Below, in pieces: positions 37,325 through 38,488 of a DNA stretch of 51,326 bases. The notes below the pieces were generated by a model. The model ran no database searches. It was not told the origin of the DNA and worked only from the letters and a program-made list of their open reading frames with translations. Source of the stretch: Thermodesulfobacteriota bacterium. GTDB taxonomy: Bacteria; Desulfobacterota; Desulfarculia; Desulfarculales; Desulfarculaceae. Positions within the stretch are counted from its first letter, which is position 1. Every line of letters starts with the position of its first letter. Both the position numbers and the translations under genes were made by a program. The stretch is taken from positions 1-51,326 of the forward strand of contig JBFMFU010000009.1 of NCBI GenBank assembly GCA_040751985.1, in the 5' to 3' direction.

Positions 37325-38488
37325 ATGGACAAGCCAGTGAGCCATCAGGCGGCGGAAAACCACTGCGCCAGCGATCGCCGCGCCTCGGGCAGGGTGCATC
37401 TGCCAATGGCGCCCAAGGCCCTGGCCCGGGTGCGCTTCAGCCCGGACAAGCCCCTGCCCCGGGCCCTGAGCCCGGAGCAGGCCTTAAACTGGCTGGAGTA
37501 CCTGGCCGGGCAGGGCGAGAGCCTCAAGGTGGTCAACATCAATGGCCCGGGCGACCCCCTGGCCACGCCAGAGCTGACCCTGCAGATACTGGGCCTGCTG
37601 CGGGACAAGTACCCCGGCCTCTCGCTGTGCCTGACCACCCTGGGCTTTGGGGCGGCCAAGGCGGCCGGAGCGCTGGCCGAGCTGGGCCTGGCCCACGTGT
37701 CCATCCTGCTGGACGCGGTGGAGCCGGAGGCGGTGCAGCGCATCTACGCCTGGATCAGGCCCGGCACCCGCACCCTGCCCCTGAGCGAGGCGGCTCGGCT
37801 GTTGGTGCAGGAGCAGGCCGCGGCCATCAGCGCCCTGGCCGCCGCGGGCGTGCCGGTGCAGGCCAAGACCACGGTCTATCCGGGCATCAACGCCGAGCAG
37901 GTGCCCGAGGCGGCCCGGCGGGCGGCGGAGCTGGGGGCCGGCGAGATGAAGCTCTTCCCCTTCCTGGCCACCTGCGTGGACTGCCCGCGGCCCACGGGCG
38001 AGACGGACCTGGCGCAGCTGGAGCGCCTGGCCGCGCGGGCCGGCCGCTACCTGCCCACCCAGTTGGTGGACCTGGCCACCTGCCAGCAGATGGCCGAGCG
38101 GGACCTGGCCGCCGCGGCCGGCCCGCGCGCGGCTCTGCCCGTCCCCAGCTCCCAGCGGCCCCATCTGGCTGTGTGCAGCTCCGACGGCTTCCAGGTGGAC
38201 CTGCACCTGGGCCAGGCCGACCAGTACCTGATCTACGGGCCCCGAGACGGCGTCGTGACCCTGTTGGAGACTCGGCCCGCCCCGCCGCCGGGGGCCGGTG
38301 ACTGGCGCTGGCAGCAGGCGGCCCTGGCCCTGAGCGACTGCTTCGCGGTGCTGGCCGCCGCGGCCGGCGAGGCGCCCAAGCGCCTGCTGGCCGAAAAGGG
38401 CCTGGCGGTGCTGGCCCAGGAGGGCAACATCGAGGGCCTGGTGGACGAGCTTTACGGCGGCGGCAAGAAAAAGGGCGGTCGCCGTTAA
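37325..38488 (+). CDS. NifB-like paralog with degenerate (Cys-less) radical-SAM motif plus C-terminal NifX/NafY-like domain
   Basis: Aligns along its length to the bona fide NifB at 41606-42883 (GRVHLP.AP...NGPGDPLA...PGLxLCL...YxWI...). The [17 protein letters not shown] segment is replaced by APKALARVRFSPDKPL. Other conserved Cys (NHC, LCLTT, TCVDC) are retained. Confidence 0.7.
   Translation: MDKPVSHQAAENHCASDRRASGRVHLPMAPKALARVRFSPDKPLPRALSPEQALNWLEYLAGQGESLKVVNINGPGDPLATPELTLQILGLLRDKYPGLSLCLTTLGFGAAKAAGALAELGLAHVSILLDAVEPEAVQRIYAWIRPGTRTLPLSEAARLLVQEQAAAISALAAAGVPVQAKTTVYPGINAEQVPEAARRAAELGAGEMKLFPFLATCVDCPRPTGETDLAQLERLAARAGRYLPTQLVDLATCQQMAERDLAAAAGPRAALPVPSSQRPHLAVCSSDGFQVDLHLGQADQYLIYGPRDGVVTLLETRPAPPPGAGDWRWQQAALALSDCFAVLAAAAGEAPKRLLAEKGLAVLAQEGNIEGLVDELYGGGKKKGGRR

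Follow-up and report, generated by a model that had tools for sequence, protein, structure and literature searches.

The window analyzed here, a 51,326-nucleotide stretch of DNA from a bacterium of the Desulfarculaceae (contig JBFMFU010000009.1), contains a nitrogen fixation (nif) gene cluster that encodes, in addition to a complete NifB, a second NifB-like protein of 387 amino acids (37325–38488; this gene and the other features of the nif region described below lie on the plus strand unless stated otherwise). The evidence supports the assignment of this protein as a NifB paralog that has a NifX-like C-terminus and some of the K-cluster ligands of NifB, and from which the motif for radical S-adenosylmethionine (SAM) chemistry is gone. 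Its relatives form a family, found in Desulfobacterota, whose genes directly follow nifK, and whose members, in the most likely reading, act in the handling of the nitrogenase cofactor or its precursors rather than in their synthesis.

The assembly and trafficking of FeMo-co (the iron-molybdenum cofactor) is a long-standing problem, most work on which has been done in Azotobacter and Klebsiella, with small proteins of the NifX family as the cluster movers. Here, many anaerobic diazotrophs, among them sulfate reducers and Desulfobulbia of importance in sediments, keep a disabled full-length NifB beside the structural genes. In the databases, members of the family bear the names "radical SAM protein," "NifB/NifX family molybdenum-iron cluster-binding protein," and "nitrogen fixation protein NifB," and "nifB_1, nifB_2" appear without remark in a paper on a Pseudodesulfovibrio genome (PMC11505543). 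In a survey of NifB sequences, 28% were excluded, most of which lacked Cx3Cx2C and were presumed to be NifX (Arragain et al., 2017; PMC5715403). The family is not mentioned in a 2026 review of NifB homologues, and targeted full-text searches, which mostly did not cover subscription journals, returned no description of a family of NifB paralogs lacking the radical-SAM motif, so that an earlier description is possible. Such paralogs are counted as nifB in automated annotation and in genome papers, by which predictions of diazotrophy from nifB, as well as NifB phylogenies, can be inflated or confused.

Loss of the radical-SAM site

The open reading frame (ORF) of the paralog is complete and starts with ATG, 6–16 nt upstream of which are Shine-Dalgarno-like GGGAG and GAGG sequences. 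The closest in-frame stop on the 5′ side is at 37283, and none of the 13 codons between the two is a start; hence, there is no longer N-terminus or hidden extension that could hold the missing motif. The translation is 100% identical to a protein in NCBI from a metagenome-assembled genome (MAG), which is named "radical SAM protein" of a Thermodesulfobacteriota bacterium.

The true nifB of the window lies downstream (41606–42883; TIGR01290 378 bits against a curated cut-off of 343.65, and matches to NifB structures in the PDB with an E value of 1e-74), and its product has CNIKCNYC, the plug loop, CTRCRADAVG, and a NifX-like domain all intact. A preliminary description of the window had stated that the paralog aligns with this protein from end to end, which is borne out by BLASTP (36% identity over 396 columns, E 1e-73), with identities of 35% in the radical-SAM-like part and 47% in the NifX-like part. 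Against the TIGR01290 nifB model, the paralog scores 131.2 bits and thus falls under the cut-off that the true NifB passes. Its match to the Pfam family Radical_SAM (PF04055; 37.3 bits, above the gathering score of 29.5) is limited to profile positions 20–165, leaving the cluster-binding start unmatched. The Pfam family Nitro_FeMo-Co (PF02579) also matches above its gathering score (35.9 bits), in line with the NifX-like C-terminal domain described at the outset.

The N-terminal part is a degenerate partial barrel of the NifB radical-SAM type (residues ~20–245; 37382–38059). In the pairwise alignment, the motif segment of NifB corresponds to the Cys-free APKALARVRFSPDKPLPRAL / APKALARVRFSPDKPLP of the paralog, with APKALARVRF in place of the Cx3Cx2C stretch; replacement of CxxxCxxC by Cys-free sequence, as originally claimed, is thereby corroborated. 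The whole segment standing in place of CxxxCxxC and the plug loop runs from H25 to R46 (HLPMAPKALARVRFSPDKPLPR; 37397–37462) and contains no Cys. A 10-residue deletion relative to NifB takes out the plug loop, including its Cys and Glu; residues 15–101 are without any Cys, and the three-Cys site for the SAM cluster is absent. The position of the TxTxN motif reads SILLD. Compared with NifB (TIGR01290; 6Y1X, 7BI7, and 7JMA/7JMB), therefore, the paralog lacks CxxxCxxC, the plug-loop ExRP, and TxTxN, and retains one K2 Cys; furthermore, it contains YAWIRP, a motif specific to the family, its tail is basic where that of NifB is Cys-rich, and its gene follows nifK, whereas nifB follows nifN. Given this sequence, radical-SAM chemistry, and hence SAM-dependent synthesis of NifB-co, is very unlikely for the paralog.

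The K-cluster ligands of NifB are an N-terminal Cys, a His and a Cys (K1), and a CxxC (K2) (PMC10114646). Equivalents of four of these five ligands are present in the paralog by alignment: C14 (37364–37366), corresponding to the N-terminal Cys of the HPC motif; H25; C102 (37628–37630), corresponding to the K1-cluster Cys (C115 of MthNifB, with the ligand identity as given in PMC10114646); and C253 (38081–38083), the sole remaining Cys of the K2 CxxC, whose second Cys is gone (CQQM, in CQQMAERD). The K1 ligands C14, H25, and C102—the last being the Cys before the S/T-x-N-G segment—are thus all present. An additional CxxC, formed by C217 and C220 (ATCVDCP; 37973–37984), is located in the loop that follows the final strand of the barrel; it occurs at this position in 3 of 179 family members and is therefore lineage-specific.

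An AlphaFold2 model of the paralog, built with a family alignment of 45 sequences, has a mean predicted local distance difference test score (pLDDT) of 88.5 and a predicted template modeling score (pTM) of 0.82, and its predicted fold is of the NifB type. Both profile and fold searches found NifB to be closest to the paralog, which runs counter to membership in an unrelated family, an outcome that the preliminary description had named as fatal to its proposal.

A family of degenerate NifB paralogs in Desulfobacterota

In a search of 5.8 billion proteins, the 120 best matches to the paralog are all without CxxxCxxC and have lengths of 366–426 amino acids. Among 50%-identity representatives searched exhaustively, about 74 full-length motif-less proteins are ranked ahead of the true NifBs or interspersed with them. 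Scanning of a single genome for each GTDB species gave about 297 genomes with a relative, a count that is approximate, since the scan patterns are largely family-specific and derive from an alignment of 12 sequences. A survey of Desulfobacterota nif clusters had been proposed in the preliminary description; across the ~74 clusters at 50% identity and the ~297 GTDB species found here, no member of the family has the motif. The best 80 of the 297 genomes with a relative are all Desulfobacterota where identifiable, and carriers include Desulfarculaceae (with Desulfocarbo), Pseudodesulfovibrio, Maridesulfovibrio, Desulfocurvus, and Hydrosulfovibrio, as well as Desulfobulbaceae, Desulfurivibrionaceae, and Desulfocapsaceae. 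One paralog-bearing nif cluster is labeled "uncultured Acidaminobacter sp.," a Firmicutes genus (CAXXTS010000005.1; L038), and resembles Maridesulfovibrio in gene order and sequence similarity; it is probably a mis-binned or mislabeled MAG rather than a case beyond Desulfobacterota.

A published list of NifB signature motifs (PMC8287671; a similar motif filter was applied in PMC5715403) was used to compare 179 family members, non-redundant at 80% identity, with 47 true NifBs. Four of the motifs are absent from the family altogether (0/179 in each case): Cx3Cx2C, which is present in 47/47 true NifBs, ExRP (43/47), TxTxN (36/47), and Cx2CRxDAxG (39/47). HPC occurs in 53/179 members against 38/47 true NifBs, and GPG in 173/179 against 47/47. 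By column, the radical-SAM Cys positions are occupied by Cys in 0–2% of the family and the plug-loop Cys in 1%, compared with 97–100% in NifB. Conversely, the W.RP of YAWIRP (37745–37762) is nearly invariant in the family and found in 1/47 true NifBs. NifB and the paralog have in common the conserved GPGDP, which is the AGPG motif of NifB, and the conserved residues Q164 and N189.

In an alignment of 45 diverse members, 18 columns are invariant, namely M1, G74, G76, G107, W143, R145, P146, G288, H294, L295, G296, R317, R328, W329, D338, C339, G348, and P351, and these residues are concentrated in the NifX-like domain. H294 and C339, both in that domain, are the only near-universal Cys/His positions. 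With respect to the K-cluster equivalents, all four (C14, H25, C102, and C253) occur together in 81/179 members, whereas H25 and C102 are both missing in 73/179, mainly Desulfobulbia, with the position of the gene unchanged; the ligand-keeping type comprises Desulfarculaceae and Desulfovibrionaceae members, including that of the window. Retention of K-cluster ligands, as first described, thus holds for the window protein but not family-wide, and the loss of these residues in the Desulfobulbia type means that they are not the basis of a family-wide function.

Two NifB-like proteins recovered in the representative search, P0209 and P0265, also lack CxxxCxxC, but group with true NifBs outside the family, and may be independent losses or sequencing errors. 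P0265 (462 amino acids) is a singleton from a single Logan contig, with ordinary proteobacterial-type NifBs as its nearest relatives (42–47% identity); as a singleton, it was rejected as support for a general trend toward motif loss in NifB.

The paralog gene directly follows nifK in 86 of 86 places, that is, in 83/83 loci, in the loci L085 and L086, which encode divergent members with 39–41% identity to the window paralog, and in the window itself, where nifK (35906–37285; TIGR01286 443.5 bits) is separated from it by a 39-nt gap. No terminator-like site was found on the plus strand between nifK and the paralog gene. The usual order is nifK, paralog gene, 2Fe-2S ferredoxin gene, often a GNAT acetyltransferase gene, and then nifENB. 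The preliminary description, which placed the gene between nifK and nifE, was accordingly right about nifK, but a ferredoxin gene (38540–38842) stands before nifE. In 11 loci with ~9 kb of downstream sequence, nifE does not follow, indicating that the tightest linkage of the paralog is to nifHDK, with one lineage of which it is inherited together. True NifB is encoded in every complete cluster examined.

For the protein as a whole, ratios of nonsynonymous to synonymous substitution rates (dN/dS, or ω) are 0.1–0.25 between close family members (pairwise Nei-Gojobori). For single domains, values were obtained from the same genome pairs for the paralog and its cognate NifB. The barrel of the paralog has a median ω of 0.19 and a median dN of 0.148, compared with 0.07 and 0.060 for the barrel of the cognate NifB, so that its dN is ~2.5 times that of the NifB barrel; the corresponding medians for the NifX-like domain are 0.14 and 0.068 in the paralog and 0.075 and 0.077 in NifB. 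The barrel of the paralog is thus relaxed yet still under selection, and its NifX-like domain is constrained like that of NifB itself. Between the carrier clusters and the window, NifD and NifK are 75–88% identical and the paralog 39–71%; the paralog therefore changes far faster.

Candidate role and competing explanations

The NifX-like (Nitro_FeMo-Co) domain of the paralog comprises residues ~278–380 (38156–38464). Its top sequence match in the PDB is Azotobacter vinelandii NifX (AvNifX; 9ian_E), a weak match (E 0.14), in which H294 (38204–38206) is aligned to His35 and C339 (38339–38341), of the invariant D-C pair, to a Cys of AvNifX. H294 is kept in 178/179 family members and C339 in 177/179, and the C339 column is Cys in 92% of NifB. 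His35 of AvNifX is a ligand to an apical NifB-co Fe in the NifEN-NifX hand-over complex, and an equivalent His is present in NifX, NafY, VnfX, and the NifB C-terminus, but absent from NifY and NafX (PMC13128457). The domain is followed by a basic C-terminal tail, GGGKKKGGRR (38456–38485), which is of low confidence in the model and probably disordered; a tail of the GG(K/R)(K/R) type occurs in 148/179 members. In the true NifB of the window, the C-terminal tail is rich in Cys (KTCCAEKMGQGGGLGCL; C411, C412, and C424; 42836–42880), and Cys is found at these tail columns in about half of the NifBs in the comparison set.

Searches with hidden Markov models (HMMs) found two NifX-like domains in the window, those of the paralog and NifB, and a small stand-alone NifX-like ORF in 3 of the 86 loci. 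These three are Desulfobulbia-type loci (L019, L036, and L071), which have the paralog and also, directly after nifB, a NifX-like ORF of ~92–118 amino acids, so that both can occur in one locus. In most loci, nifX, nafY, and nifY are locally absent, which leaves the trafficking niche vacant. In Klebsiella and Azotobacter, nifY follows nifK (nifHDKTY), a position that the paralog gene matches.

On these grounds, the role that we consider most likely, and to which we give an even chance, is that of a carrier or chaperone without catalytic activity, acting on NifB-co or FeMo-co in the niche of NifX, NafY, and NifY. The paralog would be a descendant of NifB that no longer makes the carbide-containing cluster. 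Its NifX-like domain would bind NifB-co (the L-cluster) or FeMo-co via H294 and a basic pocket including the invariant R317 and R328, and the dead barrel would act as a docking or holding module, in which, in the subclade of the window, a K1-like Cys/His/Cys site (C14, H25, and C102) could accommodate an Fe-S cluster or, by one end, the L-cluster. Somewhat favored is a NafY/NifY-like version, in which the paralog would stabilize apo-NifDK and supply it with cofactor; the reason is that its gene remains beside nifHDK even in loci with nifENB elsewhere. A NifX-like shuttle running from NifB to NifEN comes second. A carrier or scaffold analogous to NifX, NafY, or NifY had already been put forward in the preliminary description, and the near-invariant His, the local absence of nifX, and the position after nifK agree with it.

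None of the known carriers is matched in full. With NifX and VnfX (AvNifX, 9IAN/9IAO), the paralog shares the PF02579 domain, the His aligned to His35 followed by a Cys-containing motif, and a place within the nif operon, without a stand-alone nifX nearby. Unlike NifX, it is ~390 amino acids long, with a dead NifB barrel of ~250 residues in front; at its C-terminus, the basic tail stands in place of the acidic helix with which AvNifX is attached to NifE; its gene follows nifK rather than nifN; and the nifX equivalog model TIGR02663 gives no match to it at E ≤ 0.01. Compared with NafY/NifY (the gamma protein, an apo-NifDK chaperone and FeMo-co insertase), it does not belong to that family at the sequence level, and its N-terminal module is the degenerate NifB barrel, whereas that of NafY is a small sterile-alpha-motif-like domain. 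NifEN provides a precedent for a duplicated nif enzyme that has lost its original chemistry and kept its cluster-handling fold within the same operon; NifEN is, however, an unrelated protein family that is essential and has an established role, whereas a role for the paralog is deduced from comparison.

Several points weigh against a carrier role. Binding of a cluster or cofactor by the paralog is entirely something that we infer from sequence. A NifX-like domain that includes the His equivalent to H294 is already present in the NifB of the same operon, so it is not evident why another carrier should be needed. Stand-alone nifX, nafY, or nifY genes may lie elsewhere in the genomes, the survey having covered the window and the loci. 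The purifying selection on the barrel and the conservation of GPGDP, Q164, and N189 leave room for a ligand-binding or partner role. Finally, in a neighbor-joining tree with the 47 NifBs, the family forms one split with a bootstrap of 72/200, which argues weakly for a single origin; a single origin is probably better argued, mainly, from the common deletion, YAWIRP, and the invariant synteny than from this tree.

A paralog is not universally required for nitrogen fixation. Desulfovibrio vulgaris Hildenborough fixes N2 (PMC10102598), and its plasmid pDV1 (NC_005863.1; L084) encodes no paralog, with nifK followed directly by the ferredoxin gene, which is hence independent of the paralog. The NifDK of pDV1 is 55–58% identical to that of the window and so represents a different lineage. 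Fixation without the paralog is what would be expected if the latter were an accessory chaperone. Data on N2 fixation from random bar code transposon-site sequencing (RB-TnSeq) in this strain were considered as a source of a paralog phenotype and found to be inapplicable, pDV1 being without the gene.

If the paralog does bind NifB-co or FeMo-co, it would represent a new solution to cofactor trafficking, a stable NifB-shaped protein with which cofactor intermediates could be captured without turnover, and a candidate accessory factor for transplanting anaerobe-type nitrogenases. A more specific proposal, which we consider possible although tentative, is that a dead NifB has become a dedicated cofactor-trafficking protein that replaces both NifX and NafY/NifY in one widespread lineage of anaerobic nitrogenases in Desulfobacterota by means of two sites. 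These would be the His pocket of the NifX-like domain and, in the Desulfarculaceae/Desulfovibrionaceae type, the K1-like site inside the former active-site barrel, with the L-cluster or FeMo-co parked in, or relayed through, a NifB-shaped cavity between NifB, NifEN, and apo-NifDK. If correct, this would provide a natural, catalytically silent, L-cluster-binding NifB for trapping intermediates and engineering nitrogenase assembly.

A different explanation, which appears unlikely, is that the paralog is a partner or regulatory subunit of the true NifB, as in a pseudoenzyme heterodimer, or an Fe-S precursor scaffold; its barrel would hold [4Fe-4S] clusters of the K type for NifB, or the paralog would stabilize or gate NifB. 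The predicted retention of the NifB fold, the joint retention of four of the five K-cluster ligand equivalents in the window subclade, the presence of a true NifB in every complete cluster, and the purifying selection on the barrel (ω ~0.19) are all consistent with such a partnership. However, the absence of H25 and C102 from 73/179 members argues against K-cluster binding as a family-wide function, the paralog stays by nifK in the 11 loci where nifB is unlinked, and the strongest conservation lies in the NifX-like domain and not in the barrel.

It is highly improbable that the paralog is still an enzyme, with a non-canonical cluster site or cluster-independent SAM binding, that carries out another maturation step such as sulfur insertion or methyl transfer. 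Some proteins of the radical-SAM fold are known to have unusual cluster sites, and GPGDP, Q164, and N189 are shared with NifB; however, the former cluster segment is Cys-free in 98–99% of the members, the two near-universal Cys/His positions fall in the NifX-like domain, and both TxTxN and the S/T-x-N-G Asn, which are conserved in NifB, are replaced in the paralog.

That the gene is a functionless relic or an assembly or annotation artefact, as might be suggested by the 39–47% identity of the paralog where NifDK of the same clusters is 75–82% identical, and by a related type of nif cluster that works without it, is already refuted by the comparative data: the frame is intact and the length constant (~385–395 amino acids) in hundreds of independent assemblies, the position is invariant, the G + C content at third codon positions (0.93) is similar to that of the adjacent nif genes, and the space upstream is too small for an overlooked N-terminal exon. 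Specifically, a pseudogene or decaying copy is ruled out by the dN/dS of 0.1–0.25 and the 18 invariant columns, and a missed start or assembly error by the upstream stop and the identical Cys-free state in hundreds of independent assemblies, which also excludes chance. The preliminary description had itself allowed for an intact CxxxCxxC concealed by an assembly error; the family-wide loss of the motif, together with this dN/dS, speaks against it.

Neighboring genes and other observations

Upstream of nifK, the window contains a nifA-type sigma-54 activator gene on the 5′ side of nifH (30617–32191; GAF, Sigma54_activat, and HTH_8), nifH (32627–33454; start set at M31 of the listed ORF, 77–91% identity to NifH of related loci), two P-II genes assigned as nifI1 and nifI2 (33475–34214; Pfam P-II, arranged likewise in L001–L003), and nifD (34241–35881; TIGR01282 675.7 bits). 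Downstream of the paralog gene, the 2Fe-2S ferredoxin gene encodes 100 amino acids and matches NF041612 and NF041613, NCBIfam models of the Clostridium and Azotobacter types, below their cut-offs. It is followed by nifE (38855–40222; TIGR01283 600 bits) and nifN (40219–41595; matches to Pfam Oxidored_nitro and to the nifN and nifK models), whose start is probably the ATG overlapping the nifE stop; the same 4-nt nifE/nifN overlap is present in locus L001. A GNAT gene lies between the ferredoxin gene and nifE in L001, L003, and most of L004–L083, and is absent from the window, where the end of the ferredoxin gene (38842) is followed by the nifE start at 38855.

In pDV1, the PLSDB gene table for positions 2902–4459 of the locus gives a separate 97-amino-acid "NifB/NifX family" protein and no coding sequence for the radical-SAM region. 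This region of NifB was recovered by tblastn, with 60% identity to the NifB of the window; nifB may be split in pDV1, or the gene table may have a gap.

Two long ORFs in alternative frames overlap nifK and the paralog gene (36634–38301, 555 amino acids, plus strand; 36227–37399, 390 amino acids, minus strand). Overlapping ORFs of this kind are usual in very GC-rich coding DNA, and neither has support as a gene. Just 5′ of the nif region, positions 24549–29390 hold two HGD-D (2-hydroxyacyl-CoA dehydratase-like) genes, a BcrAD/BadFG-type activator ATPase gene, and an aldo/keto reductase gene with a 4Fe-4S dicluster domain, followed by a short HMGL-like (homocitrate-synthase-like) gene (29526–30470).

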